The position numbers were made by a program, and so were the translations under genes. A DNA stretch of 64,000 nt from Chrysomallon squamiferum (taxonomy: Eukaryota > Animalia > Mollusca): the NCBI GenBank assembly GCA_012295275.1, contig CM022673.1, positions 19,034,001 through 19,098,000 on the forward strand, in the 5' to 3' direction. The notes under the pieces are model-generated. The model was not told where the DNA came from and ran no database searches. It saw only the letters and a program-made list of their open reading frames with translations. Below, piece by piece: positions 1 through 55,843 of this stretch; the stretch's first letter is position 1, and each line of letters opens with the position of its first letter.

Positions 1-333
1 ATTGAATTAACAAATACGTACCACAAAATGTCGAAGAACTATATTTTTGCAATAGTTTTCAATGTTTCACTTTCAACACATTTGGACAAGAGCTGATGAG
101 TATTTGAATATTTGAATACTTTTATTACATATCCACATCACTCTAAATTGATCCCCTTTTTCTCTATTGTTTTTTGTTGGTTTTTTTGTGAGAAAAACAG
201 TCATATTTCAAACTTGAAGATCCTTTTCAAACATTTAATATTCCCTTTTTTTTTAAATTATTGATATGAGAAAGCAGTTTTTACATGTAATGAACAGGCA
301 AAATAGAGTTTGGTATTTTTGTTTTGTTTACAG

Positions 334-3300
334 AAGTCTGGCTGATGGCTGGAAGGCTGTTGCCACTGCTATGGAACAAGAAGCAGAACTTCACAAGTGA
401 GTATGATTAAGTAAATATAGAATCATAAAAGTGTTAGTTTTTTAAATTATTCTTTCACACAGATCATTCAAATTAGTGATTTACATATACACAATTTTTT
501 TTTTTTTTTTTGGTATTTATAACTTTATTTCTTTTATAATTTAGGTGTAATATCTTCCATTCTTCTCTCAGCAGGTTTGTTTGAATCACAGATGAAAAGA
601 TCTCTTAATTCAAATCAAATTATACAGTCAAATGCTTTTTTTTATACATATATATATATAAAATAAGCACTTCTGTTTATTTTTATTTTTAGAAATCTTG
701 GTTCTGGGTTAATAGAAGAAATAGGAAAACCTGTTAAAGGTTTGATTGAATCTCAAAGTAAAGCCAGAAAACCAGTAAGCCACTAAATCCTTAACAGATT
801 AATAATGTTATTATTTATTTAACACTGTTTTATGTAAATTCTTATCTGGATATTTTTACTATTATATATATATATAATAGTATTTTAACTTCTTCAAGAA
901 CAATTAACATAAACATATTTTACATAAAAGCTGTAAGACATTTCTTATTACTGTATATTATCATTTTTACTGTATACTTTGTACATTGACTTCTTTTTCA
1001 ATTTTTAAATTTCTTCACAATAAACAGATGTAGTTTATAACTCTAAAATGTTTTGATGTTAATGAACAGTGTATTTGCTCCAACATTTTATTGTTTCCAT
1101 TTCAGGTTGAGTCAATGGTAGACAAAGCCTATAAGAATCTTACTGACAGAAGAGCTGAAGAATACCGAGTAAGAGACAAATATTAATACAATTATTATTT
1201 TCCCAAAAACTGTAACCAAACTGTTTTACACCTAGTACTTTGCGATAATGCTGTATTAGGTTAGAAATGTGATATAAAAGATTATTAAGTACTGAATCTA
1301 GACATGAACTAAAGTAATTGCATTAACATTAATATCAATAAATCTCTAAATCTGATGTGTCATTGCAGGCTAAAAAACAATGCTATTCCTGTGCAAAGGA
1401 GTATGAGAAAGCAGAAGATGCATCAACTGATGCTAAAGGTGGCAAACCTAAAGATATGACCAAAGTAAGTGGCCAAATCTAAGTGTGGTTTGCTGGAAAG
1501 TGAATTTTAACTTTGTCTATTGAAGTCTAAAATACTTTTGCTTTAAATGGGTATTACACTGGAATTGCTAGGATATCAATAACAATATATTATTTGAAAA
1601 CACTCATCCATTCACACCGCTCAGTTACTGAATTCACTTTATTTACTCAAAATTTTAGTCTTTCAGGATTTTTCTTCCTTAAAATGTACAGAATGGTAAT
1701 GCATTTAATTACACGTTTGTCATTTTCAGATTGAAAAACGATGCAAACATTCCCTATCTGCTGTTACGAAGGCTGATAAAGACTACACAGAGTTAAGTTA
1801 CAAAGCAGAGTCAGTGAGGCAAGACTGGGATCTTACAGTGTGCAAGGTAATAACACTAACTGATGTAGTTCAGATGTAGTTCTTTGATGATGATATTGTA
1901 AGATCAGTCCTCTTGAGCCTGGCTGTTGGGCTGTGTAATGTTCCATCAAATACCATACCAGTGTTTTATGTTAAATATAAGTTTTGTTTACTTGTGAAAG
2001 AACAATTGATATCTAATGTCCATTAATATTAAAATTTTAGATATTAACCTTGTGTGTGTGGGTTTTTTTTTCTTCACAATGTATCTAATTCACTTAAATA
2101 TAGCAATCAAAGGAAATGTTAATATTGAATATAAATGATATTATTCTGTTCATGTATATTTTCTTTGTGAATTTCAGGGTAGTATCCAAATGCAGCGTAT
2201 TGAAGAAGAAAGAGTGAAACATATGCAAGACTATTTAAACAAATACAACAGCCAGGCGTCAGTTTTACCACCCAGGTTAACACAAGTGAGTGTTTTAATT
2301 CTGTTAGTTATAGAAAATACTGGCAGTTTTGAATAAAATATATTTTTAATTTGAATACTGAAACATATTGTTAATGAATATTATTATTTGCTGCTTAAAT
2401 TTTCATTTGTGTATTTAAGGTTAATAATTGTACTTGTCTAGAAGTATGTTTCATGAGCAGTCCCTGAGATTTATTTATAATTTTTCATGTGAACACAGTA
2501 TTTTTTCTCAAATGACTGTTGGTGGAATTATTTCTATAACACTTTTGTAAATAGGATATATTTCACTACTTCTGTTGTGTTTGAGTAAGTTATTGGGTAC
2601 AAAAATGTATTTATTATTATTAATTTTTTTTTTATTTAATAAAGATCAGGTAGTAGATTGAGAATGCTAGATTATTTTCTTTCTGTCATGTAGTTTAATT
2701 TTACCCAGTTATAATGTTGGCAAAAAAAAGAGAAGAAAAAATGAAACATGTTTTACTTTATTCAGCTGACACTTCATAAGTCTGAGATAACATACTGTTA
2801 GAAATGTGCTGCAAATATTTTTTAGAAACATAAAATAAAATGAGTAATAAATATCAATAAATATTCACAATTACTTTCTCTTTCAAGGTTTATGCATATA
2901 TTGAAGCCATTTTGATACCATTCATTCAGCATCAAAATTTTACTGAGTTTCCTGCATGACATCATTGCATTTTATAACAAGATTTCTTCCCAAGTAGAAT
3001 TTTATTTGTGTATTTGCTGAAAATATTTTTTTGATGAGATTTTTAACACTTTAGGAGGCATTTTCTTTATTATGGATTTCCATTTGAACATAAAACATTA
3101 TTGCAATGATTTATGTTGCATCTAGAATAATCCTTTCATACTGTATCTGAGCTATTAAGCAGCAGATTCACTTTATAATTAATTATGCCTAAGATTCAAT
3201 CATAATGTTTTATCAACTTCTTTACTCTACTAACTGTTGTTTATTTGTTAAATTTTAGACATTTGATCGACTGAATGAAGCTGTGATATCGGTAGATCTT

Positions 3301-6300
3301 CAAAGAGATTTACAACTAGTTATACAACAAAAAGGTGTCAAAACTCCCAAACAGCCTGAACAAATGTTAATAGACTGTTATGTATGTATTTATTCATTTT
3401 AAATATATTGACATAGATTTATTTTATCTATTTTCATGTTTTCTTTCTTCTATATGAAACTGGTTAAAATCTTCTTGAAATGTTATTTATATAAAAGTAA
3501 TAATATTTTATTAAAATTAATATTATTCATAACTCAGCTTAGAATCTGACATTAATCTGGATGCCAGTCTATGCTAATGTTAATCATTCTTCTTAAATAC
3601 ATTTATTAGGAATACTAATTCAACCAGTAAATTTAACTCCAAAAAATCACATATTTTAAATTAAAGTCTACACATGATGGAAAAGATACATATTTTTATT
3701 TTGTATATTTAAAACAAATATTTTTCCTTAAGTATATAAGATTTTGTTATATTTTTTTGTTCAGTTGTAAAATAAACATGATTACAGGAAATAAAGAGAG
3801 GTGTTTTTAAATCACTGTTTACAGGCAGAAGACTCTCAGTTCAGCATGAAATTAGAAAGAAGGAAAGAAGCATTACAGAATTATCTTGTCTATATTCAGC
3901 AGGCAATTGACAGAGACAGAAGGGGGAGAGAAGGTAAAAATTTAAAACTCTAGGAAATAGGAAACTGTGTTTGTCTGAAAGATGTTCTTTTACAGACTTG
4001 TATTTTAAGTACTCTTACCACTGTAATTTATGTAATATTCTTTATAGGTGTTCAGAAATTAGTTGATGTTTACAGAAATAAACCAAATTTTGGAGATGCT
4101 GAAGCTCAGCAAGATGTCATACAGAGGTTAGAACAGGTAAGATTAATATTTCTCAGTTAAGTTATAATAGGTAAGTCTCTCTGTACATCTTACGTGTCAC
4201 ATATTTCTGTTATATAGTGGTTGCAGTAGGTAAGTTTATTATGTACATCTTATATATTAGTAAGTCATTAAGCTGTCAGTGTTATTAGCTGCTTCATTTG
4301 CTACATCAGTACATATAATATGTTTTCTCTTTATTTAAAAAAATCAGTAAAATCTTTTCAGTTACTGATTTATTGTTCCAGTAAACAAGAAAAATGATAA
4401 ATACAGATAACTGTTTGTATTTGCAATTTATTTTCTGGATTGTAATTTGTAATACTAAAAACAATTTTTTTTGTTTCAGACAACATTCATGTTGAATTTC
4501 CTTGAAGCTAGTCATTTCAAAATCTCTGCTGCATTAGCAAAGTTCAGCCAGAGAGAACCACCACAGCATAAATTCTCTCAGTATATAGAAACCACAAGAG
4601 AAAAACAGGTTTTTCATTTCTAATGCTCATGCATGTTTTGTAGTAAAATCATCCAATGTGTATTTCAGATCTATTTATATGACCCATAGTATTAGCAGTT
4701 ACATTTTCTAATAAAAATGAGCTATTATTATGTCAATATTTATTTCAAGATTTCTAATTTTAAGGATGTAATTTGGTATATAGCAAAGCAAAATTAAAGT
4801 AGATTATGATTAGAGTATATGCTTTTGTTTGATCCTGTCACATTTTGTACTCAGGGCATGCTGGTTAGTTTGTTGAAACTACCACTGAATCTCGCACTGG
4901 AAGGAAGCAATGAATATACAGCATTTCCATCATCAACCAATAACTACTACCAAGAACTGCAACCTCTTGATGAAGAAGGTGAATTGATAATTTCTTCTTT
5001 TTTTCTATTCTTTTCTACAGAATAAGATAACCTTAAATAAAAAATAAAAATAAAAAACAGTTTTAATTTTTAAAAATTGTGAATATTTGTCTTCTAATAA
5101 ATAAATGTTAATTTTAAAAAATGAATTGCACATATACAGCAAATTTTAGTAGATATTGGAACAGTTATTGTTAAACATTTTTAATATGTCATTAGATAAG
5201 TGCATATAGAATATTATATTAACTTGTTTTTAAAAACATCTTATTTTATTTTAATTCAGGTTACTATGGTAAGTTTTTTAACTTATTCCTTTATAAAATG
5301 TATATAATTGTAACCTCTTTGCAAGTTACTTTTTTAATTTTAATTTTTTGTAATAGAGTATATCACAGAAGAATGATCAGCTGTGACAGTTTTTATTTTG
5401 TTTTGGCATGCCATTTTATCTTTTTATGGTAATTAGAGAAATATAAAACTACTCACTATACTCTCAGATATACCTAAACAGTCTGTGTAGGACACTGATG
5501 TGCGTGTGGAACATGCCATTTAAACATTTTTGATAGAACTGTATGAACTGTATACACAGCTTGTACATTTTTTTTTTTTACATTAACATTATTGGTTTCA
5601 CTGACAGCTTTCAGAAGTAAAAATATTACAGTGCTCTGTGCTCAAATTTTTATTTATACAGAGTTTAAATTAACTATATTATTAAATTATAAAAAATACT
5701 TTAATAACAAATATTTTGATTTACAACACTAGATTTAATAACACTTTAATAACACATATTTAGATTTATAGTACTGTGTGTCATTAACTTCTATCTTGTT
5801 GATATTTTAAATGTGGTCAAATGTAAATGTTATTAATTCCTTTAGAATAATAAGTTTTAAATATTACATTCTCTAAGAGTTTGAATCGATGCACATTTTA
5901 AATTATTGTTCTATTAATATTGTTTTGATACTCATAGCAAGCAGTCATCATTGTGTGTGTGTGTGTGTGTTTAGAAAACTGTATTGCTTGTCTGAAAAAC
6001 AGGAAATAGAATAATTTAAAATGTATTTAAGATTTATTTCTGTCAGTTATAAAAACATCAAAAATGACATATATCTACTTTTGATTTCCTGCGTTCAGTA
6101 ACATGCCTTTTTAGTTTATAGTTTATATGTAGAGAAAAGAAAATAATTTTATTACTTTTTTTCTTAATTTTTAACTTTTGTTTACCTAATTTATGAACAT
6201 TGCAGAAAATGTAGATGATTTGCATCTCGGTAAGTTTGATAATGATTGCAAATTTGTGCTGGTTCAGTGGAAGGCAATGTTCCTTTTTGTCAGTTAAAAT

Positions 6301-8337
6301 AACACTTTAATTTTAAACAGGATACTTTTTAAAATCTTGTTTTATGTATCTATTAGCTTACAGTCTTTTCTTTTTAAAAGGAATATAGCTTTATTGCATG
6401 GAAAAAGTTACTTATCTATCTTATACTGTAGCATCAGTAACACTGCAGCATGAGTAAAGGACATACAGTCTGGCGAATTTAAATATAACAGTTTGACATT
6501 TCACTGATCAGAAAGCTCATGTTTCCCTATAAAATATTATTTTTATTTTCATCCATGATGATATAAATATACTCTTTCAATGAAAGTAATAAAAATATAT
6601 TCTGGCATGGTAGAGATTTCCTATTTCTATGATGCCTTGCCTGTAATCTGCTATTTAAAATATTTTGAGCATGAATGCTTCCACTTGATATCCAAAATAA
6701 TCATTAAATGGACAACTTCTAACAAATGTACTAATTGTGGTTGGCACTAGTTTTTCATCATCTTCCAGAAAAGGAATATGAGTTGAAGGTTTGGGACAGG
6801 CTTATTTTATATAAGGCTTTTTTTCTTTAAAACAAATATGAAATTTCTGGTTTTTAAATACTTAAATCATATTTGCAACAAATAAAATAATAATATTAGA
6901 TATTTTTCTTAGACACAGTTATAAAATAATTATATCTTTAGTTAAATCTTTCAGTGTACAGCAGTTTGAAGTTTCCTTATCTTTATACATATGTATATTT
7001 TAAATTGTATTATTCCTGTTTTTATCCTCACAACCACTTTTGTGTTTTCTTATATTTTTAACTGCTTATGTCTTCTTAAGACATCATGTTTTTTCCAAAA
7101 TTTGTTAGCAGCAGCTTGTTTTATTCACACAAGATTATCTTCAGTTCTGAGAATTCATTTGTGAGATTTTATATGTTTATTAAATGAAGGCACATCACAT
7201 ACATTTCTATTTGAATCAATCTGAATGATTAAGTGTTTATTTTTTCTCATACTTTTGGCAGAAGCAGTCCATTTTAATATTATATATATATATATATATA
7301 TAAAAAATTCTTTGGAAGTTTTAATTTGCAAATTGGAAATTAATTTTTTTTTTTTTTTTTGTTAAAGACATATTATTTGTTTCTAGGTCTTAGCAAATAC
7401 GTAATTGTATTATAAAGTTATGCATGTACACAGTGGTTCTTTTATACAGAAATCTTTTCCCCAGCTTTTTACTTCAGGAAATATATAACATTTCTTATAA
7501 TAACATCAAGATAAGTGATCAGCAAAATGACAGTTTTGAAAAACAACATAACTTTTTAGATTTTGGAGTATATTTGGTGAAAGCTGAACAGTATTTATTT
7601 TTAATCTTTTAATTAACTGTTAGAAGAATGACCATAAATAAAAATAATAATTTTGTGGACTGGAAAATGTTTTTGTTTTTCAGAATCACATGACCCTGAT
7701 TAAAGAATGACAATAGTGAAATGTTAATGTTTTCTGCTTGTAGGAAATGATTCTGATCCTGAATTTGACATGGACCCTATCGGTCAGTGTCGTGTGATAT
7801 ACAACTACACTGCTGCTGCTGCTGATGAACTTACAATAAAACCAGGTGGGTGTTACTTACCCTGTAATTATCATCAGATTATGATAAAACATTTTACAGC
7901 AGTTTTATTACTAGCTTCACAGCTTTTATTCATATTTGTTCACTCTTTCTCTTGTGACAGTATGTATCTTTGTTGGATAAATAGTGTAAATTAAATCTAC
8001 ATAACTTATTTTAAAAAGTTAACTTTAAGCAGTTCTTACAATATAAGTTTTAAATATGTATATATTTCTAGTTGACATACATCTGTGGCATCTTTGAAAG
8101 AAGATCAGGAAAGATTTTTTTTATAATATTGAAACTGATATTTGCTTTTTTATCTGTTGTGAAGTTTAATTTATAAATATAATTTTAGAAGTTACAATTT
8201 TCTTTTTGATAGCTTTATTAAATTATTTTTCAGGTGATGTAATCAAAATATTTGACAAGCTTGCAAATGGTTGGTGGCATGGTGAATTACAAGGCCAGGT
8301 TGGCATTTTCCCTTCAACTTATGTTGAAGAGTTTTAG
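334..8337 (+). CDS. NOSTRIN: NOSTRIN-like F-BAR/HR1/SH3 membrane-trafficking adaptor, 5'-truncated by the window edge
   Basis: GT-AG exons with consistent phases: 334-396, 693-774, 1106-1168, 1369-1464, 1730-1846, 2178-2285, 3259-3381, 3825-3933, 4048-4136, 4480-4608, 4855-4978, (microexons 5260-5268, 6206-6229), 7744-7845, 8234-8337 (TAG). Translation shows F-BAR helices (SLADGWKAVATAMEQEAELHKNLGSGLIEEIGKP; MQRIEEERVKHMQDYLNKY), an HR1-like segment (GVQKLVDVYRNKPNFGDAEAQ) and a C-terminal SH3 (CRVIYNYTAAAADELTIKPGDVIKIFDKLANGWWHGELQGQVGIFPSTYVEEF). Confidence 0.88.
5260..5268 (+). CDS. Candidate 9-nt microexon of the NOSTRIN-like gene (adds GYY)
   Basis: ttattttattttaattcag|GTTACTATG|gtaagt: long pyrimidine tract, perfect donor, symmetric phase 1 matching the flanking exons (4978 and 7744). 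Confidence 0.7.
6206..6229 (+). CDS. Candidate 24-nt microexon of the NOSTRIN-like gene (adds ENVDDLHL)
   Basis: ctaatttatgaacattgcag|AAAATGTAGATGATTTGCATCTCG|gtaagt: perfect donor, symmetric phase 1, open frame. Confidence 0.7.
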
Positions 8338-14521: not shown

Positions 14522-17500
14522 TCCTGTACAACATTCATATTACAGATCAATATTAGAAACATAATGTTATATTTTGTCAAATTAAGATCTGATTTAGTAA
14601 ATAATCTAGAATTTTTCTCAGAAAATTTTAAAAAGTTCTTTATATAACAATAAATATGAAAAAGGATTAGAGTAAGTACATCTTATAAAGATTAATCCAC
14701 TGAAAGCCATCAAGTCAACTATTGTTTGTCTGAGGAATCTATCATGAAAAAAAAAAAAGTAACACTGAAACAACATCCAGCAGGATTTGAAGATGAAAAA
14801 TTTACTCACCTTTAAGTATAAGAAGGATTAGTTCAATATCTTTTTCTTGAAATGAATCAACAAATCTTTTTAATATATCAAACAGTAAAGTACTTCGTAT
14901 AACCTGAAACAATAAACAGTCAAGAATCACTTAAATTTTTATTTTCAGTTTATTGTATCTGTACTCTGTAGGGCTATATTGAATTTGAATAAACTGTATG
15001 TATATATAACAATACAGAGACCAGGTTTTTTCTAACTTTTTAGTACATTTAAAAATATAATTAAGAGTAAAATATAAAAATAACTTTTCTCTTTCTTAAT
15101 GGCCTAAACATTACCTTGAAATTGTAGAGACCTGTAAAAAGCATAACTATATTGTCAATCGTTTTATCACCACCATAACCAGCCTGCTTGTATAGTTCAT
15201 CAAATTTTTGGGCTAAATTCTGGATAAAGAAAGCACCTAAAAAAAATCAAGTTTTTATTTGTTTTTTATGAATTATTAAAAAAAAAAAAAAAAGTATGTT
15301 AACAGATTAATTAATAGTAATACACTTGTCAGATTTATTACACTACTGAAAAGGCTAAAGAAACATTCATTAAAAAAAGGATATATGATTATGTTCTAGG
15401 ATATAACATTAGTTATGTATAAAACAAATTAACAAAATCTGTAATTATACTTATGAAATGTATGACAAACTAATCATTATACAATTAAAAGTTATTTTAA
15501 ATTAGAGTTTTGAACTCTAATACAATTTAAAAAAAAAATTATTTAGTTAAAACATCAAGTAATAACTATGAACTCACCAACTTCATTACCAACATTACTG
15601 TGTAGCAAAGTAATCAACATAACAAGTTCCATTGTTAGTCTCTCTGGAGTGAGGCTGACAGACACACAGGCCTCCTGTATGAGACTGGTTAGTGTCTCAT
15701 TAACATCAGCTCTGCTGTTAGACATGTATATGTCTTCTATCTGCATGCTGATTCCTTGAATGTTAGACTCACTGGTTCTGTTAATATGTGAAACAACATA
15801 AATAACAGGCAAATTCAAGTGATTTATTTCTTTGCATGAATATTTAAAACTAATTTTCTACACAACTTACTATATGTGAAATTGAAAAACAATTTTATTA
15901 ATGAACTTTTAAAAATATGTAACATGCCCAAATGTGTGTGTGTGTGGCTTAGCATCATCTTAATTGCATACAAAGTACTTAAAATAAAAAGTCAAAATAT
16001 TTACGGTTCATACATGAATACAGTTTTCTATTCAGTGAAAAAATGCATCTTTTCTGTTTGATAAAAAAATTAATATTAAACTTATCTGTGTTAAATAAGC
16101 TACAACGGAAATCTGAGAACATTAATTTATTTGTGTTTGGAATAACTTGAAAGACTATAATTAACTCTATTTGATTAACAAACCTGTTTATAAGACCTTT
16201 CATCTGTTTCTTGAGTCGTTCCAAAACCTGTTTTCTCTTGTCACTGTCTTCTGTCACTGGTCTCCTTTTGGCTGGAGGGATGTAAGCACCACTCATTTTA
16301 GAAACAGGAATAACATTACCTTTTTCATCTCGGATGCGTCCATATATGTCTTCTGAAAGACTTTTCTTTTTTTCTCTCATGTAATCATCAGTTCTGTCAT
16401 CAATATTTTCCTCTTCTTCATTGTCACAGTCATCATCCATACTGTCATCATCAATGACATTATCTTCATCGCTGACCTCATTATCATCTTCATTGTCACT
16501 GTTGTCATCTGCCTCAGAACTGGTTTCATCATCATTACTGTCTTCCACATTATGAAACTTAACTTTCTTATCTTCTTTTTCTTTTCCATGTTCTGCTTTT
16601 AGAATTGATTTATTACTGTATTTATTTTGTTCATTTAATTTTGTATTTTTTTTAGTTTCTTCATCTATTTCATATTCATTGCTGTCTGAAAGATCACTTT
16701 CTGATTCATTTTCATCACTAGCCAGTGAAGGTAACTCAGCATCTGAATGCAGACAGAAGAAAATATAAATCAGATTAGAGGAAAAACAGTGAAAGAATAT
16801 ACTTAATTTGTTGCAGCTAATCATGTCACTTTAGTCAGTTCTTTATAAATTCAATGTTTCTTATTTTTGTACAAAGACTCATTAAACATGTAACAAAATA
16901 ATTACTGCACATTTTTTAAAGTAAAAAAAAAGGGAGAAAGCTGTTTTTTGTGTTTCAAGGAATAGCAGAGTACAAGTATACATAATATAAATATGTTCTT
17001 GCTTAAAAAACAAAAATGAAACATGTATAATTCTGTACCTTCATTATCAGATTCTAACATGGTTTCTTCAAAATTTTGTTCCCTGGCAATGTCAAGTTTT
17101 TCTGAATCAACTACATCTAAAAGAACTCATAATGTTAAGGGAAAAACATTCACAATCATTAAACTTTTAATACAAAACAAACTGTAAAAATATTATTATG
17201 TTTTCTTTATACAGAAAAAATTAAAAATAATGTAATAACTTTAAAAATCATAATTATAATTAAATTTTTAAGGATGCAGTCAAGCCCATCACTGATGAAA
17301 GCCTTAGGTAAGGTGTGCATTGATTTCTTCAGTTTCAGCTGTTTTTCAAGATGATGCAGTTCTCGATCTTCCTTTTCTATTGCCTTCAGATGTTGTTCTC
17401 GTTTCAAAGCTGCTTCCTATATTAAAAACAAATATTTGTATTTATAGGTTTCTTTTTAAATGCAAACATTATCTAGAAACAAAATAAAGGTGAAAATAAT

Positions 17501-19216
17501 TCTTATTTCAAACTGTAAATTAAATGTTTCATATCCAAAATCTTTAGCATGGAAAGTGTCTCAGATTTATCGATTTTTATATTTTGAATATATCATAGAT
17601 GAGAATGGCCTGACAATATTATATTATTGCTCCAAGAGTTAATTATGAATATGAAATACATTTCATGTACAATCAAAAAAAAGAAAAAGAAATACAAGAT
17701 TTTAAAAAGTATGAAAACTAATTTTAAATCATTAGAAAGCTACGTGATTACTATTGTTGGTTGTCAGGGGGTGTTCTACTGCAAACATTCTTGATTTCAT
17801 GTGCTGTTTATTATGACACATGTACTGCTATATATGTAGTGGTATATCTGTGATGTATTTAAAATATATTATTTATTTCACAAGGGTAGAATAAACTTTC
17901 ACTATCTTCTTTTTTCACTTGAGGAACTTGAACATTAATAAGCAATTTAAGCAAGAGTCAAGAAAGAACAACAGAGTCACACTCACTTGGAAAACACTCT
18001 ACTCTAGGTGATGTCATTTTATTTTAATAATAAAAAAGTAGTTATAGCTATTAAAAAATAACTATTTTATTTAAGGCAAATTCTTGAAAATGCATTGATT
18101 CGATTGAACATAGAAAAAACAATGAAAAAGATTTACCTTTTGTTTTGCAATTTTTTTCATTTTTTTCTTTGCTCGTTTCCTGAGATTACTTCGTCTTATC
18201 TTCTCTTTCTTCTTCATTTCTGAAAGTGCTTTCTGTTTAGCTTTGTCAAGATCTTCTTGAGTTGGAATCTATTAATTTACAGATTTTAAATGTGTGTGTG
18301 TATTATTTTCTTAACATCTATGCTAATTTTATGTCTCAACTTTAAGATATTTTGTTACAGCGAATATTTTATTTAAATAATATATTTTATTCAACAAAAT
18401 CACTATCAAACAACAATTTCTTCTATATGTAACATTCCTTCAACCCTTCAATTAATGTTTCCTGTTAAGGAAAACAATTATTTGTATTATAAAAATAAAA
18501 TGATACCAAAACTGATGTTTTTGATTTTCTCTGTTTTAGAAAGAACAACTGTGACTATTATGATTATAACAATAACAGTACTGACAGGAAATAACATTTG
18601 TAGTGTGAATGCTGTTGTACACAACAACGACAAGAATGATAAAAAATAAAAATAAAAATAAACCCTCTTAACTGATAATGCAATCTTAGAATCTATGGCT
18701 GTTTACTGAATGTGCCAGCTTTAAAAGACCGTCTACTAATATCAACCATCTACCAGAATAAATAATTTTTAGCCGTCTTTTCTCTTTATTTTTTCTTGGC
18801 GATAACGACGATATTTACTTATCTCATGTTTAACTAAACTATGGAAATTTACTCCGTCTGTGTTTTCAAGATTATTAATGTTTTGATGGTAACGTTTTGG
18901 ATTTTTCCCGTTGTCCTCTTTGAAAGTATTTCCAAATAATAATAATAATATAAAATGTTTTTCTAAAAATAACATAAAAATTATATATATACATATCAGA
19001 GGTTATATCTGTCCAAAATTTCATCTGGGCACTTACGGTCTTCTTCTGACTGAATGCAAGACGTCGGAGTTTTTTCAGCTGTCTTTTCTCTTTACGTTTT
19101 TCCTTTCGATAACGATGAGATTTGCTTATGTCATGCTTAACTAAACTATGAAAATTTACTCCGTCTGATCTTTCTAGATTATTTTGTTTTAATGGTGACT
19201 TTATGGATTTCCCCAT
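12169..19216 (-). CDS. NOM1: Nucleolar MIF4G domain-containing protein 1 (NOM1/Sgd1), MIF4G + MA3 domains
   Basis: Exons in transcript order: 19216-19037 (ATG), 18268-18137, 17416-17278, 17125-17039, 16742-16184, 15777-15578, 15236-15115, 14903-14810, 14483-14253, 13973-13842, 13643-13522, 13250-13086, 12899-12768, 12450-12169 (TGA). All phases are compatible. NOM1 motifs: DGLDFLL, EDIYGR, YIPPAKR, KGLINRTSESN, GFTLRKDDP, SRVKFML, KGRWWLIGSAW, RMNTDIRKNIF, TFQFSLWD. Confidence 0.95.
17126..17277 (-). other. U12-type (minor spliceosome) intron with a non-canonical GC-AG boundary in NOM1
   Basis: Minus-strand 5' end GCATCCTTAA (U12 consensus RTATCCTT with T2>C). Branch site TTCCCTTAAC is followed by attatgag| at the 3' end. 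Removal joins GAC T|TT CTT TTA GAT = DGLDFLLD and keeps the frame. Confidence 0.85.
18770..18925 (-). pseudogene. Degenerate tandem duplicate of NOM1 exon 1 lying in intron 1
   Basis: Aligns by eye to about 19075-19230 (NNLENTDGVNFHSLVKHEISKYRRYRQEK vs NNLERSDGVNFHSLVKHDISKSHRYRKEK). The ATG position reads ACG, small indels are present and the gtaagt donor is lost. Confidence 0.85.
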
Positions 19217-20589: not shown

Positions 20590-23500
20590 TTAAAATGAGC
20601 TTGCTTTGTGTTTTGGTAGAAAGTTGAACTCAGGAGGAACTGGTCCAAGAAACATCTCACTGAAAAAGAAAAAAAAAAGAAAAAATAAAATTATTCCTTT
20701 TCTGAAAACAATGCAATGCTTTAATGAACATATTATTTGAAAAGCAAATGTGAAATCATTAAAATTATTATAGTTATTATATTTTTATTATTATTATTAT
20801 TCATAATTTTATTTCAGCAGAAAAAGTCCTAAAATTACATCTGATGCTCAACACAGTAATTTATTTAGCTTCAGGTTTAGTAATGTGTAACTGACTGAAA
20901 AGTTAACAAATTAACAAAATGCAAATGAAAGATGATAATCACAGTGGTAATTTGATTAAAGAACTAATTAAAGTTTCTCAGTTTAACACTTTACCTCAGT
21001 TTTATCCAGTCACTACAACTATAACTACTCATAAGTGTTTCCAAATCATTTCTACCAACAAATTGAGGAGGACGTTCATTTATTTTTTGTGGCAGTCGCT
21101 CCAGAAGTCCAACTGGAATATATCTTAAAGAAATAAAGTTGGAAATCAGTACATTTCTTTTTGCATTACTTGATAAACATAATCCTGCATCATAAAAATT
21201 TAAATTTTAAAATCTCAGTCACTGGATCAGGTGAAGAATAAATGTTTTTTTACGTCTTATGGCTGATCACTTACAAGAGAGAAAATATATTATAAAATTT
21301 TCAATTTTTTCATATTTTTTCCTGATGTCATCAACTGAGTTGCTTAGAATATCTTTCATTTGGAAAACAATTTTTATAATTAGAGTTCCAACATTTAAGT
21401 ACTAATATTATTCTTTCTATAATCATTTTTTGTATGTTGATGAATAAAAGAAAACTAGTGCAAGACGAATCATGAAATATTGACAAATGTAACATTTACC
21501 TGCAAGTAAAAGACAACCATTCCAGTAGAAAACGTCTTGTGTTCTCCACTCCCTGATAGTCTGAGCCCCAATGTTCCAGTCCAAAATTTGTGTATTCCTT
21601 TAGAATGTCCAGTCTTTCAGAGGCAGAGATATCCCAGTGTCGCCTTTCTTTGATCTCTGTGAATATCCATGGTTTGATTAGAGCTCCTCTATAAAAAAAT
21701 TAATTAAAAAACAACATAACACTCCAAAAAGAAAATGCAAAATCACAAGCTCACATCATTATAATTATTGTAACATTAAGAAATAAAACTCAGCAGAAGT
21801 GCTAGTATGATGAAGTGCTAGTTGAAACACATGATGGTTGATTCCACAGATTAACTCTGACAGAGACAGCTTTGTGTGTCATTTTTATGGTTTTCCCTTG
21901 AATTTAAATAGTCAATGAATCTTCTGGTTTTCAAAAACTAAATATACGTTTGTATAATGATTAACTGTTACCTCATTTGTAAAATATTTTTTAAACAAAG
22001 TCTAAAAACTATTAAATATAATGATTTTAAAATGTTATTTAAAATAAAATTTACATAAAAATTTCAATGACTCATTTCTAATATATATAAAGGCTGACTA
22101 AGTGTTATTTTATTAACTAACCTTCCAATCATAATACCAGACACTCCAGTGTTCTCAAGATGGTTATAGTAGTCTTCGTAAGATAAAATATCTCCACTGC
22201 CTAGGTAAAGCACACAAATTTTTACTTAATTTTGTAAAAATTATTATTTGTTGTAGTATAAATGATCTGACAATATACTTATAAAGCCAATCAAAATAAA
22301 TATTTAAAAAACATAATCTCACAAATTGAATTAAAAATATATTGATGTACAAAGAAATGAAAAATCTGTGTAGGCTAAAAAATACAAAAGCAGTAATTGA
22401 TTTTGCATGGTTTTGAATTCTCAGATTTTTTTATTTATTTGTCAGATCTATCATATATCTGTTTCAAAATTATATGATGCATTTAAAATAAAAGTCCCAC
22501 TTTTGTGTTTTTATTTATCAATTTCTTTTTTATCGACCATGAACTTTCATAACTATTGATATTTAATATTGTCATTACAGACTTTTGCTGCAAGAATTTG
22601 CACAAAATTACCTTCTGTGTATGTCAGTGACACTTTTGTGATAAAAATAAAAGTAGTGATATATGGAAGGCCTGTGGAGGACACATCTGAACTTGGAATG
22701 TATGCCCATCTTGTACAATGTGAAGAAAAGATTATCTGTGTTGTTTTGATAACATTTTCATGTACATTTCTTTTACATGTTTGTTACATTAAAATATAAA
22801 AGGTTAATACACAATGAACAGGCTTATCAGTAAAAAAAATTGTAATTCACAACTGAAAACATCATCTGCTTGTGTGAAAAAACTGATATGTGAATATGCC
22901 AAACCATCAACCTGTTTCCCAATAATCCAGTATGGTAGCTATTTATTAGTTTTCACAACAAAATAAGACATGTACAGAATTTCAGCTACTCTGAGACACC
23001 AGTGAATATCTGCAACATAAGATATTAATATCCATTTCTTTAGCTTAAATAAAAGATCTGTTAATTAATTATAAGAATTTTAAAAGATGTTTACCAAATA
23101 GTGGCATTGGTGCTGCTGCCTTAGAGCACTGATCTATGTACTCCCAGTCAGCCAGACGAGTGTACCGCTGTTCTCTGGATCGTCCATGCAGCTAGTGAAA
23201 CAGAGACAAAAATTATTTAAATAAAATAAAATATTTAACTACAAATGAAAAAGGAAACTGTTAGAAAAGTACACAACTAATCAAATGCATAAAATATTGT
23301 AAACAAAATTGCTGGACTTGATTGAGAAATATTTAAACTTATATTTAAAAATAATAAAAATAAATAAAATTCAGACGAAACATACAGTGGTTAAGGATGT
23401 TCCCCAATCTCTGAGCTTTGGCATCAGCAAATGAGCAGTGTTTTTGTGATGTGAAATTCCTGTTCTCACTTTTACTGTTAAAGGAACATCAAGAACAGAA

Positions 23501-26500
23501 GACATCCCTCTCACTATTTTCTCTAATTTGTTTGGTTTGTCTATCAGGGCTGATCCAGCTCCCTAAATTTAAAAACTGACTATTTCATACAAATGTTCAG
23601 TAAACCTTAAGAAATATCTAATATTAGCATAACATACTAAATGTTTAATAAAAAGACAGTTAATAAAACATATCAGTTTTTTTACTTTAAAGCTAACCTT
23701 CACACATTAAATTACACTGAAACATATGTTTGTTACTAAAACAATTGATAAATAAATATGAATAATTTTTCTTAATTGAGTAGTTGATCAAACTTCCATT
23801 AAAATATTTCAGAATGGTGAAGAAACAATTTTTTTCACAATAATTCTAAATTTTATTTGAAAGCAATTAAAAAATAAACCAATACATTTTTCTAGCAAAC
23901 AGCTCACTTTTTGATATACTATATCTATAGGGCAGCCACAGTTTATATCCAGGAAATCTATTTCTACAGTTTCATTCAAAAGTTGAGCACATTTTGTCAT
24001 AGTATCAGGAAATGCACCACAGATCTGTAGAAATATTTTGTGAAATATCTTTTAGTACTATGTAAAAAAAAGTTGTAACCTGTGAAACATGAATTAAAAA
24101 AAAAGTGATAAATTTTTCTTTTTATTAACATTTAAAGCAAAATGAAAAACATTTTAATCAATGATTATATTTAGTGTCAGTCACACACACACACACCACA
24201 TACACATACTTCTTTGTATCTATATGTAAAAGATATCTTGCTTCAAGGCACCCATCACTCAGCAGCAGTGAAATTTTTCTATCACATTATCACCACATAT
24301 AAAATACACGACTGATATCTAACAAGTATTTATCTAAAAAAATTGGTTTTAGTCATTCATTTACCAAATTGTGAAATATAGCAAATAAAGTGAATGTTTA
24401 CTTCAGTTTGTTTTTTATTTTGTTTGCACAAACAATACTTTGATATCTTGTAACTTAGAAATGATCTCTCTAATCAAGCACTGTACCTGAACACCAAAGA
24501 TGTCTTCTGTTGAATGGCGTTTTATAAGAGACCATTCTGACTGTTTACCCTGCAATAGGTTTGTTGCCATTGCCATTTCTCCACATGTTATATCAGCCCC
24601 AAGTTTCTTGCACATTCTCCTAAAAGGTAGATTACCCACCTAAAAAGAATAAAATGAATGATATCAATTCAGTTTACATTAAATTAATGAAACAACCATT
24701 TTATTACAAGCAATCATCAGAATATGTTACTGCAAGTATATAAATTCAATTATTCTTATTACATTAGATAACAAATAATATCATATAAAAATAATGTATA
24801 CATAAATATGATTTTAAATAATGTTTACAATGTATTCATAAATTTTATGGAAACTTACTGTTGTTAATGGAGCCAAATACAGTTTTTCTGAGAAATTTAT
24901 CTGAAAATGATAAAATATAATTTCCAAAATCATCCATTTTTATAGCCAATTATACATTATACAACTCAGAATTGTTTACTTGTATACATTTTATGATCTT
25001 TGTAAATTACATTCAAATTTTACTGAACTCAAGAAATTTAATATAGCTATGACTAATTGTTTGATAAAATTACTTTTTATCTCTTTCTGGCAGACACAAG
25101 TATTGATTAAATTTAATTAATAACACTCATTTATTTGAAATATCTTAATAGATAGATACGTACAAATTATTAACAAATTCATAAAATAATTAATATTTTT
25201 CTTCTAAATGTAAACAGATTACGGATACTATTTAATTGACAATCAACGAAATATTGAATACAGGGCATATTATAACATCTACAGATATTAATAATTATTA
25301 AACATAACTAAAATACATATTATTAATTACACCCAAAAAAACCTTCATAACAAACCATTTTCTTTTCAGCAGATTTTAATTTGATAACATTTTCATTAGT
25401 GATACACCCTATGTTATGTTCCTCCTCCACGTGGTTGCCATTAGTACTTGTCAAATCTACAGCAGTGCTGACTTCTATCTGGTTCTTTATTTCCTTCCAA
25501 AAACCACTTTGAACTTTCTCATCAACTGTCAGAGATTTAAAACCTTTGGAAATGACAAATTCTGATTTATGAAAATTGTATTTCTTTTTCCACAGCAGTT
25601 TCTGTAAATCTTTCGATAAAGTATTCATCACTTTATCTTTTGATGCCATCTTTTTATACAGTTCCTCATTAACAATGTTTTTAAAATTTTCATCAACATG
25701 ACAGTCAGAAAATCTACATCGAATTCCACAAGGACACTTTCCAAATGTTCTAAATATATGGCATTCATCAGAAATGTTGGGTATCTTAGAGTTTACAAAT
25801 TTGGCGACATCATGTAAGAATTTACATGAGTCACCAAAAGTACATTGTTCTTCTCTGACAATGGCTGGGCACATTTTTAATGAGGCATCTTGATGTTTGT
25901 TCCTAGGCCTGTTTTTATTACATCCTTTCAACTTTTGTTTCTTTGCTAGTGGCTCTCCTTCTTCTGATGGCTGTTTGTGAGGCTTTTCAACTGAAACTAA
26001 ATACCTACAAAAGACATTTAGCAAACATAATAATTCAAACATGATAATGCTTGTTACATTTAATTTTGTAATTAAATATGAAATAAAAAATTATGTTAAC
26101 TCTAAACATTAAAGACTGTATTTACATTTCAGGAATTACTGTATCTATAAGCTTTGTTAAAAATGCACAGACTTTTTCTTCTTTCTTTTCAGTGCAGATG
26201 ATAGTTTGACATATCTGAAATTTTGACTGATTTAACTTAACTGACTTTTACTTAGTACTTAAACCTCTGACTCACATATTTGTGACAATGAATGTTTTGT
26301 CCCACCTACTCCAGCTGAAACATACAGCCTGACTTCTAGATTGTTATCACTGAGAAAGATCAGAGGGTTGATCTTTTTATCTCTGTCCAACATTACATGT
26401 TACAGTTATAATGGAAAAGTTGGAATATTTTCACTCAAATAATTCCACATTTGCAGAAGATGTCCCATCATTAAAATTTACTATTTACAAAAATAGAACT

Positions 26501-26824
26501 GAATGACAATGAAATTCTGTGGCTGCAGATAGTTCATCAGCTTGGAGTGAAGGCTTAACTTGAATTTTAGCTGTACATGTTTATTGCATTTACATTTTTT
26601 GTTTATGAAACAAAGACTAGTATACAATGATACCTATGGCCTACATTCATAGTACTTAATATAAGAACTACTATATAGTTTAATATCAATATTATATATA
26701 CATACTGTTTTTTAATACATGCATAGCCTGACTTCATTTCCTTTGTAGCAGTTTCAGTGATTTTTCTCTTTTTAATATCATCATCAGAGGAGAAAACAGC
26801 AGAAATACAAGTTACAGTGCTCAT
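20590..26824 (-). CDS. DUS3L: tRNA-dihydrouridine(47) synthase, DUS3-like (two CCCH zinc fingers + Dus TIM barrel)
   Basis: Exons: 26824-26706 (ATG), 26004-25356, 24900-24859, 24639-24487, 24024-23908, 23562-23386, 23191-23095, 22200-22122, 21688-21500, 21123-20995, 20659-20590 (TAA). Motifs: [76 protein letters not shown] probable non-coding first exon has its donor near 27521. Confidence 0.96.
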
Positions 26825-36025: not shown

Positions 36026-38612
36026 TTATAGTAGTATACAAGGATTCTGTGATTTTTTGCTTGCAGACATCATAGCAATACGAGTAGCAGTTTCAAATAC
36101 ATCGCGCACACCGTCCTGTGTTTTTGCTGAGCATGCCAAAAAAGCACTAAAATGCAGACTGGTTGCCATCTTGCTTCCATCAGATCCAGTTAACGGGGCT
36201 TTGCCTTGTTTTGAGAGGTTGGCAATCACGCGTTTGTCATTGATCAAGTCACTTTTGTTTCCAACTAAGATGATAGGTACTTTTGGCAGATAGTGAACAA
36301 TTTCCGGTTTCCATTTCTCAGCTACATTCTGCAGACTGTCTGGAGAATCAAAGGCGAAACAGAGCAGAATCACATGGCTGTTTTTATAGGACAGAGGACG
36401 GAGCCTGTCATAATCTTCTTGTCCTGCAGTGTCCCATAGTTCAAGTTCAACCTGCAAGTTAATACAACGGAGAGAGGCTATTTTAAAACAAAAGATAACT
36501 GTTTTTATTATTATTATTATTATTATTATTTATTTTTTTTTCGTTTATTATGAAGATGATAATGAGGATTATTATTGTTTTTTCTTACTTCTAAATTTGC
36601 CAGGAGTCCGAACTCTATTTAGCAAGACCATATTTACTAATAATAACATTTTTAAATATTCACCAAAACAATCCTTTCCAAGCAATCAACAGTATATCTG
36701 TATATCCTAAATAATACCCACTATTTAGAAATATGAAATAATTCACCAACATATATGATTAAAACACACACACACTCTGCGAAAACTGGCCTTTGACTAA
36801 TCCCGATTTTTTCTGTAAACCGGTATCAGAGCCTTTTTGTTCCACTTACGAATATTTGTTTCACCCATTCTGGAATTAATTTCATGCGTAGTTCTGTATT
36901 CTGTTTGTGAAAATACTATATACAGTGTGTGTCAATTGAAACTGACTAAATACCACTGCAAACAGAGATTCACAAAAGCACATTTATAATTGTAGATAGG
37001 TGGATAAATAATTGAGGGATATATTTGTCTTGAAAATTGGGATATTCTTCTCTTTTTTTTTTAAATTAAAGTGAAAAACATTCATCCCTAAATCCATTTA
37101 TCTTTGTTAATTATTTGAAAGCATGTTGCATTGTGACCAATCCTTCAATTAAAGTGCTACAATAACACAATTTCTGTTGTTTTTTTTTGTCAAAATGTCA
37201 GGACCCGAGTCATTTGTTTGAACCTGAAGTGTCAAAATAAGTCCATAGACGAGACCCTTTATTTTGATATACATCAGTGATTATGATGATGAGGATTAAC
37301 AAGGTTCTAACCTATGAGACTGAAGAAAAATATCTTGAGTATTACTTTTTTTTTAAATCAGAAAAAAACACGTTACAAGGCAGCCGAGTTTTATTCAGTA
37401 AAAAATAGATTCCTACATTATTGTTACTCTGTTGAGAACGTGGTCAAATAGTCCCGTAAAGCCAACATTCTACAATCTGTTCATGATGATGAGTTACTAG
37501 GAGGATATTTTTCCTGGGAGAAAATATGGCAGAAGTTAAGGAACCATTTTTTTCTAGAACGGCATGAGTAATGATTGTAAGAACTATTGCACACATTAAC
37601 GATGCAACAAATTAGCCAAGACAACACCCATTGGGTTAACACCTGCACCTTTAGATTAGTATTAGTGTGTTGAGACCTAAGTTACTTAACCCATTTAGAT
37701 TTAATATCAAAAGCAGAAGTCTGCATAAATACGTATGGCGCACATCTTCCTGTTTTATTCAGTTCGACGTAATGCCAGAGCGACCTAAAAACCGGCAGCG
37801 TATCGAACTTTCTAAAGCCAAGCTATTGTCATGTATACAACGATGTTCTGTTTATAATAAAATAGGTTCTTTAATAAAATACTGTATATAGAACATGCCA
37901 TAAGTGATAAAATAATTTAACAAAACATTTTATCCTTAAGTTTGTTTACGTATACTTGAAGCCTACTTTCTTGAGTATTGGACCTCTACTTACATTGGTT
38001 TGTTAACTGTAATCTTTACTCTACATGTAATTATGTCAGTTAATTTAATTTGTTTACAAGTTTAAAATAACTGTGTTTAATGTCAAACTGTAACAACAAT
38101 AGTGAAACAATTCATTTGACGGAAATATCTGAAGTCCGTTGACCGATCGCAGAATGTGTTCCGAGATCGTTGGACAAAATGAAGGCAAAATGTATCGATA
38201 CTTTCAATGTCCAAGTGAGGTATTTAAAAAAAGAAAAGAAAAAAGAGGGCGACTTAGTCTTAGCCGTGGATAACAGTTAGTACAAACGATCTATTATTTT
38301 GCCCATTTTGCCCCTCGCTTGAATTCTGGCAATGCAGTTTAAAATTAAAGATAGGCAATATTTGATATTTTAGTGAGTGTTACCGACAATTGTACGAAAC
38401 TAATATCTCGACAGAGAATAACCACCGACAAATTCAAAAACCTATATGGACTGACGATATACACATTGACCCATCGACCGAACTGTCTTACAATAATAAA
38501 ACAAATTAAATCTTTTGCTGCTGCTTCCGAAAGCAGATGTTTGTCACCGATGTTAAACATGGAGGCCATGACAGAAGAGTTTGCTTTGGAGAGAAATATA
38601 AAAAAAAAGAAA

Positions 38613-42159: not shown

Positions 42160-44350
42160 ATGATTAAGCTATTTTCCCTGAAACAACAAAAGAAGGATGG
42201 AGAGAGTGCACCAGATAGAGGAAAACGATCGTCTGCTGCCCAGCTGCGGATCCAGAAAGGTCACCACAAAAATAGTCATGACCAAATCTTGACTTGTTAA
42301 AATTTATCAGTGATGTATTCTCACTATTTGTGATATTAGATGATTAGTTTCTTCTCCAACATTTAACATAAAATACATTAATTTTTTATGTACAATTTTT
42401 ATCATCTAGTTGGCTCTCGTGGATAGCTTTTTAGATTTTTACGAAAATTAACTAATAATATAATAATAGTAATACTTATACTAATATTACTATACTGTAT
42501 AGAGTATAGACTATAGTACTGACCAGGCATAGGCCAGCTTTTTCGAGAAGCGGGCCACATGAACCATGGCTCATCCTCAGGCGGGCCGCAGGTACCAATT
42601 TACAGCATAAATGGAACAATTAGGCGCGCCATTCAGAAAGCCGCGCGGGCCGCTGTTTGCCATGACTGATTGACTGGTGTAGACTATAGTCTATGCTCTG
42701 TAGTTTTAGTAATAACTTTTAGCAGTCGTAGTCTACTTTAGTTCTTGACTCTAGTCTCTAGTCCACCACTTTCATTGATTTGTCGGTACATAATATATGG
42801 ATTCAAAACAAAACCACATAACACAAATGCCCACTGATTAATGAAAATTATGGGGGGAGGTGGATGTACTAAGAAATATTTCTTATTTTAGCAATCGCAC
42901 TTCAGAAGAATGATTTTGTTAAATTGAAATTTAGTTCTGTTGATTGCTGTTGTTCTTATGAATACCCTAATGATACACTGCAAATGTATGACCACTGGTA
43001 GATGGCTTCCTTTAAAATACAATAATCATGAAAATCATTTAATTACTGCTTATAATCCATCTGTCACATAATGCATAATCTGACTGATGTTTTTAAATTA
43101 TATTATCAATAATCAATCACACATTTTACCCAGTCTTGAAAAATAGCCATCGAGATAAGAAAGTTATCTATCAATATGTGACATATCTGATGTTCAGTGC
43201 AAAGTGCTTAGCCAGTAACAAACAGAAGACCATCGCAAACATTGATACTCAAAATGTAATCAGCTTTTTGTACCCCCTTCCTACCAGTTTTTCTATAGAA
43301 TATGCAACAAAATTAACACCAAAACTATGAATGGTAATATCAATAGGCAACATAATTCTTTTTATCAACATCGATAAATAATCCTGTGAATTACATTTTC
43401 TGTTGGTTGTATATTGGTGATCATAAATTTGTGTTTGATTAAAAAAGAAGGCTTTGAGTTTTTTCCTTTAGATTAGTTTGTTTAATATGAGGGAAGTGTG
43501 GTTTTTGTCAACTTCTGCTTTTGAATGTATATGGTTATGTCCAGTTACAGTAATGTAGTATATATGATATGTACATTTTATTGACCCCTTGGAGGAAGAG
43601 ATTGTTATGTGTTATTGATGTTAATAAATGTTATTATGATAAAACTTTCTGAGTTTTATTGTTTTAAAATTGAGGATAATTAACAAATTTATTTTAAAAA
43701 ACCAAGGAATAATTAGACATAAATATATATGTAAACTAAAAATTGTAAAATTTACATTAAAGTCATCAGTGATGATACTTCTTTTTCTATAATCTTGTTT
43801 CTGTCCTTTTAGCAATAATTGATTTATGCTGCTAAACTAGTGATGGTAATTTTTAGCCTTTTCTTTGCCTGTTCACTGAACAATAGTAAGTCATATCTTG
43901 CATCAGATCATTAGTTTATTACAAATCTTTATTTTTTAAATTAATCTTGGACTTGCATGTTTATCCACAGTCATTAAATATTTCAAACATACCTATTGTA
44001 ATAACATTTGTTGTTGTTGTTTAATTAAAAGATCTTATTTCAGATATTACTGAACTGAATCTCCCAAAGACTTGTCAAGTTGATTTTCCAGATCCAGATG
44101 ATTTACTAAACTTCAAACTCAATATCTGTCCAGATGAGGTGAATCCTTTTTTTTTATTCAGTTTTAGAAATTGTTTTAAACATTATTACTATCAGTCATT
44201 TCATTTATAATGATCAATTCTGTAACATTTATAACAGTTGTGAACTGTCCCAGGGAAAAACTCTGGATTGACTCCATGACATAACATAAAGGTATTTACA
44301 TTTAATCTATAAATAGATTAATGCTGATGCAGGTACTTCTTTTATATGAA

Positions 44351-44385
<35 letters not shown>

Positions 44386-45667
44386 GAAGTTGCAAACAAT
44401 ACCAAAATGTTATGTTTAATTTTTTTTTATAGACTTATATGTTATGAATGCATATTTTTTACAGTTATGATCACAGCAGATGAAGCTTTTTCAGATTTAA
44501 TACTGTTCTGAAATAATCATTAAAACTCACACTTATTTATACCTTTTCTTTTTCAGGGTTTTTACAGAGGTGGTAGATTTGTTTTTAGTTTCAAAGTAGG
44601 ACAAGGTTATCCCCATGATCCGCCAAAAGTTAAGTGTGAAACAATGGTTTATCATCCTAACATAGATTTAGAAGGAAATGTTTGCCTTAACATTCTCAGG
44701 TAATGTATATTGATTTTATTTTATTAAGTAACAGATATGAAGAATCTTGCACAAACAACTTACTTATTAATAGGTTTTGTCATATTTATTTTTTTAGAAA
44801 TGTATTATAAAACATTTTACATGTTTCTAAAAATGTTCTAAAATAACAGCTAGGTTTAACTATAAATATGACATTATCAAGTTCACTTTGTTAAGCCTAT
44901 TATATTGTAATATAAATGTTTGTATGTAATGTTAGATAAGAAATTGAAGTTTAATAAATATCTCAAAATACATTTTAGAAACTTACAAGTTCAAAATTAT
45001 TTCTTATAATGGATTCATTGAACGACTTTTTAATTTGTTTTTGTGGCCTAACGTAGCAATACACATTTTTGTGCATTATATACCATTTATCATTATTTTA
45101 CATGATAAATACTTTTACAGAGAAGACTGGAAGCCTGTTCTTACTATAAATTCAATAGTATATGGATTACAGTACTTGTTTTTGGTAATTATGTTTTTGA
45201 GTCTTTATCATTTTGACAATGTAAAGTGCAAAAGACATCAAATTTGAAATAGTGCATTATTACATAATTTAAAAAAAAAAAATTATTTCTTTTATGCTAC
45301 AGAGTTACCATTAACTGAATAAAAAAATACTTTTTAAATAAGCTGCAATGATTTAGGTGTGACAATAAAAACCTCCTCAGTAATTTCTTCTTTTTTAAAA
45401 ATCTATTTCAGACAGTGAGTTGTTATACAGTGTATGGCTGTAGATAGCAACACATTTTTCAGCTTATTTATAAGTTAATAATAATAATTTATTGGTCAGT
45501 TAATGAAAAGCATTTTTTGTGTTTAGGAGCCTAATCCAGAAGACCCTCTTAATAAAGAAGCAGCCGAAGTTTTACAGACAAATCGTCGTCTCTTTGAACA
45601 GAATGTTTCCAAATCAATGCGTGGTGGACACATAGGTTCTGTTTTTTTTGAAAGGTGCTTAAAGTGA
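42160..45667 (+). CDS. UBE2M: NEDD8-conjugating enzyme Ubc12 (180 aa)
   Basis: Exons 42160-42259, 44044-44138, 44557-44699, 45121-45184, 45527-45667. Begins [12 protein letters not shown], contains [11 protein letters not shown] and the catalytic [21 protein letters not shown], and ends FERCLK*. Confidence 0.98.
42524..42668. mobile_element. Short hAT/Charlie-like MITE in UBE2M intron 1
   Basis: GC-rich 145-bp island with CAGGCAT...ATGACTG ends and three GCGGGCC repeats typical of hAT-Charlie MITEs. The TSD is degenerate (gtatagac/gtgtagac nearby). Confidence 0.6.
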
Positions 45668-55279: not shown

Positions 55280-55843
55280 AGAAACATTCTCTTTAAAAAT
55301 AAAAATTTATATGTATTAGATGAAAATAGAAATAGTTTTTCAAATATTTGTATTATATGAAAGAAAAAGTTGTTACTTGATCAAAATAGAATACATCTGT
55401 TATAATGCCATTAAACCTGACTACTTCATTTACACAACTGAAATTTGTAAAACTGCAAAAAATTTATACTGTGTATATTTTGCTATTGTTATTATTTAAT
55501 TACAGAATAAAAAAATTAAACATAAAATATTTCAAGGTAGATAGATGGTGATATTCAAATATCTTAATTATGCATTTGTGGATTCATGGATGTTCAGTTA
55601 ATAAAAATAAACCATAATAATAAATATTATATTATAAAAATACATTTATTAGGAACATTACATAAATATGAAATATCTGTTTGAAATGAAATATTTTCCA
55701 ACTAGTAACACTTTAATTTGGAAAACTCTTATAATTCATAGATAAACAATTCCAAAATGCATACTGAGAGTTTAATCAAAACATGACACTGTTCTAGCCA
55801 TGTTCTTAACAGATAATGTAAACAAAAGGCTGTTTGAAAGGTT

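Follow-up and report, generated by a model that had tools for sequence, protein, structure and literature searches.

Intron 3 of NOM1 in Chrysomallon squamiferum is real, begins with GC and is spliced. In our judgement it is very probably a GC-AG intron of the U12 type that the minor spliceosome would remove, a reading drawn from its motifs and its orthologues. The initial annotation, made from the letters of the window (the whole 64,000-nt stretch of contig CM022673.1 analysed here), had proposed such an intron in NOM1, and the RNA joint, a C at intron position +2 and the GTATCC start of the orthologous introns bear this proposal out.

The junction of intron 3 in NOM1

The intron is 152 nt long, lies in phase 1 and ends in ATGAG; when exons 3 and 4 are joined across it (Table 1), the translation reads DGLDFLLDVVD. 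Evidence on expression and DNA was taken from contigs of four of 11 runs, namely DNA runs X3 and X5 and RNA runs X8 and X9; such contigs drop rare variants, and levels of expression or retention are not derivable from them. In X9, one 865-nt contig with a depth of 3.8 links five exons and skips exactly 17126–17277, passing from 17125 to 17278 through a joint that reads CT..GC on the plus strand, has 87 letters on its short side and leaves zero positional ambiguity. The full junction was therefore found in one of the two RNA runs, and the predicted joint of 17278 to 17125 is established by one unambiguous contig. In X8, an upstream contig ends 5 letters past the junction, beyond 17278, and fits the spliced form, and another contig is unspliced and extends from exon 4 to 53 nt into intron 3. 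Unspliced contigs (16952–17068, 16113–16213 and 15753–15903; depths 2–4) also span two major introns. Since ordinary introns are covered in the same way, at such depths, by contigs that give no levels, they allow no inference on splicing efficiency.

The C at intron position 2, on which the proposal depended, is the same in the window and in the contigs of X3 and X5, which come from two other studies, cross the site and have no differing letter at 17276–17277; thus it is not an assembly error. X5 represents a different haplotype, with 6 further letters unlike those of the window over 3.1 kb, and keeps the C. Three of its variants (16590, 17338 and 17364) are common to the spliced X9 contig, so that the spliced allele resembles the haplotype seen with GC. 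Coding variants between runs lie at these three positions and at 19078 and 19182; three alter residues (H231Y, R122Q and N12S) and two are silent.

Other ways of splicing this region were enumerated by combining all GT, GC and AT donors from 17345 to 17201 with all AG and AC acceptors from 17175 to 17061, which gave 15 in-frame pairs. The sole GT donor among them, at 17292, deletes DGLD, in agreement with the earlier statement that no GT donor preserves both the frame and this motif. This donor and the AGs at 17117, 17111 and 17102 are frame-compatible, entail the loss of conserved residues and are absent from the RNA joints; no use of an alternative donor or acceptor was seen in the RNA contig joints of intron 3. 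Reading straight through the donor, as DGLDC, leads to a stop after 23 codons, and Cys follows DGLD in none of 100 intact homologues (Y in 96, F in 3 and W in 1).

Table 1. Features of NOM1 and of its intron 3 (positions in the window)
Feature	Position	Strand	Basis or remark
NOM1 coding span, 14 exons, 858 aa	12169..19216	-	five upstream joints RNA-supported; the remaining eight rest on homology and an open frame
Exon 3, ending in DGLD and the first base of the following codon	17278..17416	-	RNA joints 17415/18136 and 17125/17278
NOM1 intron 3, GC-AG ends, U12-type signals	17126..17277	-	RNA contig joint 17125/17278 in X9; donor/acceptor enumeration
5′ splice site GCATCCTT, C at +2 (17276), exonic T just before (17278)	17270..17277	-	sequence; X3 and X5 DNA contigs with C
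U12-type branch site CCTTAAC, putative branch A at 17135 or 17136	17134..17140	-	motif; similar motifs in orthologous introns
3′ splice site AG (GAG), pyrimidine tract absent between branch site and AG	17126..17127	-	sequence; RNA joint
Exon 4, opening with the remainder of the Phe codon, then LLDVVD	17039..17125	-	RNA joints 16742/17039 and 17125/17278
In-frame stop at intron nt 69–71	17207..17209	-	retention would give a protein ending at 173 aa, ahead of MIF4G and MA3
Weak in-frame GT donor 15 nt upstream, would delete DGLD	17291..17292	-	enumeration; no joint of this kind in RNA contigs
In-frame alternative AG 9 nt downstream	17117..17118	-	enumeration; no joint of this kind in RNA contigs

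Aligned over 847 aa, the protein of the gene model is 51% identical to P0003, a NOM1-like protein of a chiton. Exon 12 matches MA3 (E 2.6e-11), MIF4G was scored on the homologues P0003 and P0020 rather than on the split exons of the window, and with these two domains and full-length similarity the gene belongs to the NOM1/Sgd1 family. A search with one conserved exon returned 159 proteins, and those bearing a name among the 120 matches listed are NOM1-like. In a quick tree of 25 proteins the window's NOM1 groups with those of molluscs (SH-aLRT 95) and, weakly, next to Patella and Haliotis (91), which makes the host a mollusc and likely a gastropod. Sgd1, the yeast counterpart, is reported to be required in the early pre-rRNA cleavages for the small subunit (PMC7237134).

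Two further observations concern NOM1 intron 1. At 18760–18925 (minus strand) some 160 nt of exon 1 recur in diverged form, with 143 identical positions in 202 alignment columns and no RNA contig over them; this copy is likely a dead partial duplication. At 18460–18475 (minus strand) a strong U12-like branch motif is followed immediately by AG, without a matching donor or RNA joint, and is probably there by chance. The neighbouring genes in the window are ordinary: an HR1/SH3 (F-BAR-like) gene (250–8330, plus), DUS3L, the next gene upstream of NOM1 and in the same orientation (20600–26600, minus), a Rho-like GTPase exon (36029–36529, minus), a ubiquitin-conjugating enzyme gene (44000–45700, plus) and a UBR/PRT6-type ligase (55800–64000, minus).

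U12-type signals at the ends of the intron

Against the U12 donor consensus RTATCCT(TT), the donor of intron 3 matches at +1 and at +3 to +8 and deviates with C at +2 and A at +9 (7/9). By consensus strings of this kind intron 3 is the best of the 13 NOM1 introns for the U12 donor (others 2–6) and for the branch motif (7/8; others 4–6), and the worst of them for the U1 complement (3/11; the 12 others 6–10). A occupies both +9 and +10, and T is found at +9 in 22 of the 28 distinct orthologous sequences. The tail of the intron reads CCTTAAC and then ATTATGAG. The motif itself and the 8 nt that follow it are as the initial annotation had described them, but these 8 nt run to the intron end and include the AG, so that the AG is 6 nt away from the motif and not 8; the putative branch A is 10–11 nt from the intron end.

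Taken alone, GCATCCT is unremarkable, with two occurrences in 128 kb where 2.26 are expected, and of 100 simulated windows 11 contained a donor followed within 400 nt by a branch site and an AG. Both motifs are located here at ends that were set by RNA and by protein homology, so the relevant chance figure is the joint one of about 2e-7, which follows from their frequencies in the window (donor motif at 6 of 9,312 G[CT] sites, branch motif at 2 of 6,273 AG sites).

In terms of class, intron 3 combines a U12-type donor match, a strong branch site near its end, excision in transcripts and a conserved position and type. It also has the features of the U12-type GC-AG subtype of Sheth 2006, namely GC-AG ends, a donor that reads GCATCC over its first six positions and an optimally spaced U12 branch site. 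As a U2-type GC-AG intron it fails, having a U1 match of 3/11 and a GAG acceptor rather than a pyrimidine tract with YAG. Within the window, an Rfam search returned no U11, U12, U4atac or U6atac gene, and a motif scan returned no second minor intron; a CCTTAAC at +44685 was rejected as such, being inside the apparent coding sequence of the ubiquitin-conjugating enzyme gene.

The same intron in other NOM1 genes

Metagenomes were searched with a degenerate motif of the end of exon 3 that admits minor donors of the GT, GC, AT and AC kinds as well as intron-less codons and excludes major-type donors. It found 102 loci; 72 scoring at least 25 bits against a profile of the NOM1 region were kept, and 30 below 25 bits were left out. 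L031, L058 and L071, which read T and then GCTTTCTT, were dropped, having 14–16 bits, no blastx match to NOM1 and no downstream exon. A locus search from the full NOM1 alignment, with patterns from its C-terminal half, confirmed no locus.

A phase-1 intron occupies the same codon position in 42 of the 72 NOM1-like loci, and each of the 42 starts with GTATC[CT]T, as had been anticipated with GTATCC; none starts with GC. They comprise 28 distinct exon sequences in 10 clusters at 90%, one of which holds 26 loci. Both ends are visible in 25 of the 42, amounting to 17 distinct introns that are all GT-AG and mostly carry a U12-like branch site 11–20 nt from the end; the downstream exon scored weakly in the L070 group. 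A large related cluster (L001, L012, L016, L039, L044 and kin; 10 of the 28 distinct sequences) has the donor GTATCTTT, with T at +6, and branch sites 12–19 nt from the AG; here the same intron has departed from the consensus in a second way.

The nearest named proteins are from an annelid for L052, an ant for L088 and cockroach- or termite-like insects for the L027 group. For L020, a neighbouring gene has its best named match in a sponge at only 50% identity, which may hint at an origin of the intron before the bilaterians. The remaining 30 NOM1-like loci have no intron at this position, and one intron-less NOM1 locus (L048) is fish-like in appearance. The simplest history compatible with these sequences would be an old GT-AG minor intron that several lineages have lost and whose +2 base turned from T to C in the ancestry of this mollusc. 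At this junction P0121, the nearest relative in our searches (80% identical), has DGLDCIL, a reading that fits read-through of GT and of GC alike. L024 (match 2141–2180, minus) is a NOM1 locus without the intron in which DGLD is followed by T and then ATATCCT, a perfect AT-type minor donor within coding Tyr-Ile-Leu. Perhaps a peptide after DGLD that spells a U12 donor offered a route for the first origin of the intron, a speculative idea.

Public gene models were surveyed at this junction in the 120 listed of the 159 homologues. Among these 120 matches the motif is intact in 102, 10 are fragments or start beyond it, and 8 are broken or otherwise changed at the junction; the last make up 8 of the 110 listed models that cover the region and are all from insects, P0106 for example reading straight across the donor as DGLD-CILL-YLL. 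In the insect loci seen the intron is GT, so models break where the donor is likely GT, and the failure of predictors, which the initial annotation had tied to the GC donor, is not special to GC. One public model from Tubulanus (P0011; 1,527 aa) joins a WD40 protein to NOM1 and is probably two genes fused by a predictor.

Competing readings, mechanism and known introns of this class

Could the major spliceosome remove this GC-AG intron, the U12 motifs being relics? GC-AG is far commoner among major introns (0.4–0.9% of U2 introns; PMC1557818), and dependence on the minor spliceosome is read here from motifs and orthology. Yet major GC donors are described as compensating with a near-perfect match to U1 (PMC1557818), whereas that of intron 3 is the worst in its gene; the T at −1, the GAG acceptor, the lack of a pyrimidine tract between it and the branch site, and the intact U12 signals at both ends also argue for the minor spliceosome, and we regard the U2 reading as very improbable. 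Scarcely credible is an ordinary GT-AG U12 intron in which the C is an assembly error or a rare allele: this would suit the GT in 42 of 42 orthologous donors and the loss of rare variants from contigs, but the C recurs in the window, X3 and X5, the last being a different haplotype.

A better case, still an unlikely one, can be made for the GC donor as a selected weak site at which minor splicing would throttle NOM1 and so 40S ribosome assembly. In a human reporter GT minor donors were reported to beat a GC one, and the GC-AG intron of LZTR1 is described as sensitive to loss of CENATAC (PMC8280824). The 173-aa product of retention would suit such a throttle, as would the X8 contigs, one unspliced within intron 3 and the spliced one ending so close beyond the junction. 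However, the same RNA runs hold unspliced contigs over two major introns, at depths of 2–4 and from contigs without levels, and GC was seen in no other lineage. Moreover, 30 of 72 NOM1-like loci are intron-less, and NOM1 is missing, as LZTR1 is too, from the human and mouse minor-intron lists that include PTEN in the accessible supplements of PMC6717393; the intron thus appears dispensable in many lineages, and its absence from these lists agrees with the intron-less, fish-like L048. Slightly less likely again is that GC was fixed as a throttle on 40S biogenesis sensitive to CENATAC or U11-48K, or that the U11-48K of this lineage is relaxed at +2, with GC in many minor introns.

For the GC-AG U12-type intron that we favour, a single T-to-C change at +2 likely turned an ancestral GT-AG intron into the present form. 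By the established mechanism, U11 would pair with the intact donor bases beyond +3 and U12 with the strong branch site, and +2 would be unpaired and touched by the U11-48K protein, so that a C there would weaken recognition and not abolish it; the AG would be selected through its short distance to the branch A. In a preprint, SNRNP48 is reported to cross-link to U+2, U11 pairing is described as short and the branch-site interaction is suggested to drive recognition (bioRxiv 2023.12.22.573053), in which case a strong branch site would sustain the use of a donor whose +2 base is C. Unspliced molecules are predicted to reach the stop 71 nt into the intron and to be degraded, and a loss of efficiency would then lower NOM1 output. 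The change would most simply be a tolerated, near-neutral substitution; that the GC donor could be rate-limiting for NOM1, as had been suggested, is plausible in view of the human reporter results.

U12-type GC-AG introns were defined in 2006 by the motif GCATCC, with four in human, four in mouse and one in fly, LZTR1 being conserved, and subtype switching was described as frequent among non-canonical minor introns (PMC1557818). An Lztr1 intron, which we infer to be the GC one, is listed as affected in mouse when U11 is lost and in fish when rnpc3 is lost (PMC11347168 supplement). NOM1 intron 3 is a further case of this rare class. Its rarity, asserted in the initial annotation, is supported by published tallies: GC-AG makes up 0–5% of minor introns per genome and 0.61% in human (PMC7367187), and among conserved minor introns of animals it accounts for 123 cases (0.167%; PMC10639083, supplement Table S1). 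We found no literature on NOM1 with a U12-type intron, and NOM1 is absent from the tables of minor-spliceosome-responsive introns in the accessible parts of the sources, including PMC11347168; the IAOD, MIDB and Larue and Roy tables may already list the intron.

NOM1 intron 3 offers a clean, polarised example of a conserved minor intron that has changed subtype from GT to GC, and the two natural forms at a single position can serve to gauge the weight of the +2 base in U11 recognition. It also settles a junction where public NOM1 models frequently go wrong. What is known of splicing would be altered only if high retention or a lineage-wide GC habit proved true. We take the fly gene CG9004 to be NOM1, and found no literature linking the two names. 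A honeybee gene annotated as CG9004 (100576775) has a GT-AG U12 intron (PMC3291851, supplementary Table S1, row 65, where no position is given). It is most likely the ortholog of NOM1 intron 3, its position being deduced from the presumed family, the GT-AG ends and the ant-like L088, which has its intron at DGLD.

Compared with known systems, intron 3 shares with the GCATCCT GC-AG introns of Sheth 2006 the donor, a U12 branch site near the AG and an exonic base at −1 unlike the U2 consensus, and differs in belonging to a mollusc NOM1 and in that its use of the minor spliceosome is deduced. The honeybee CG9004 intron is alike in its presumed NOM1 family, and has GT-AG ends where ours has GC. 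The fly GC-AG minor intron lies in CG16941/SF3A1 (PMC2831892; PMC3291851 supplement); it resembles the present one as a GC form in one invertebrate lineage and a minor intron missing from the human gene. The two differ in the gene concerned, and in that for NOM1 the GT orthologues were read directly in annelid-, ant- and termite-like and other loci.
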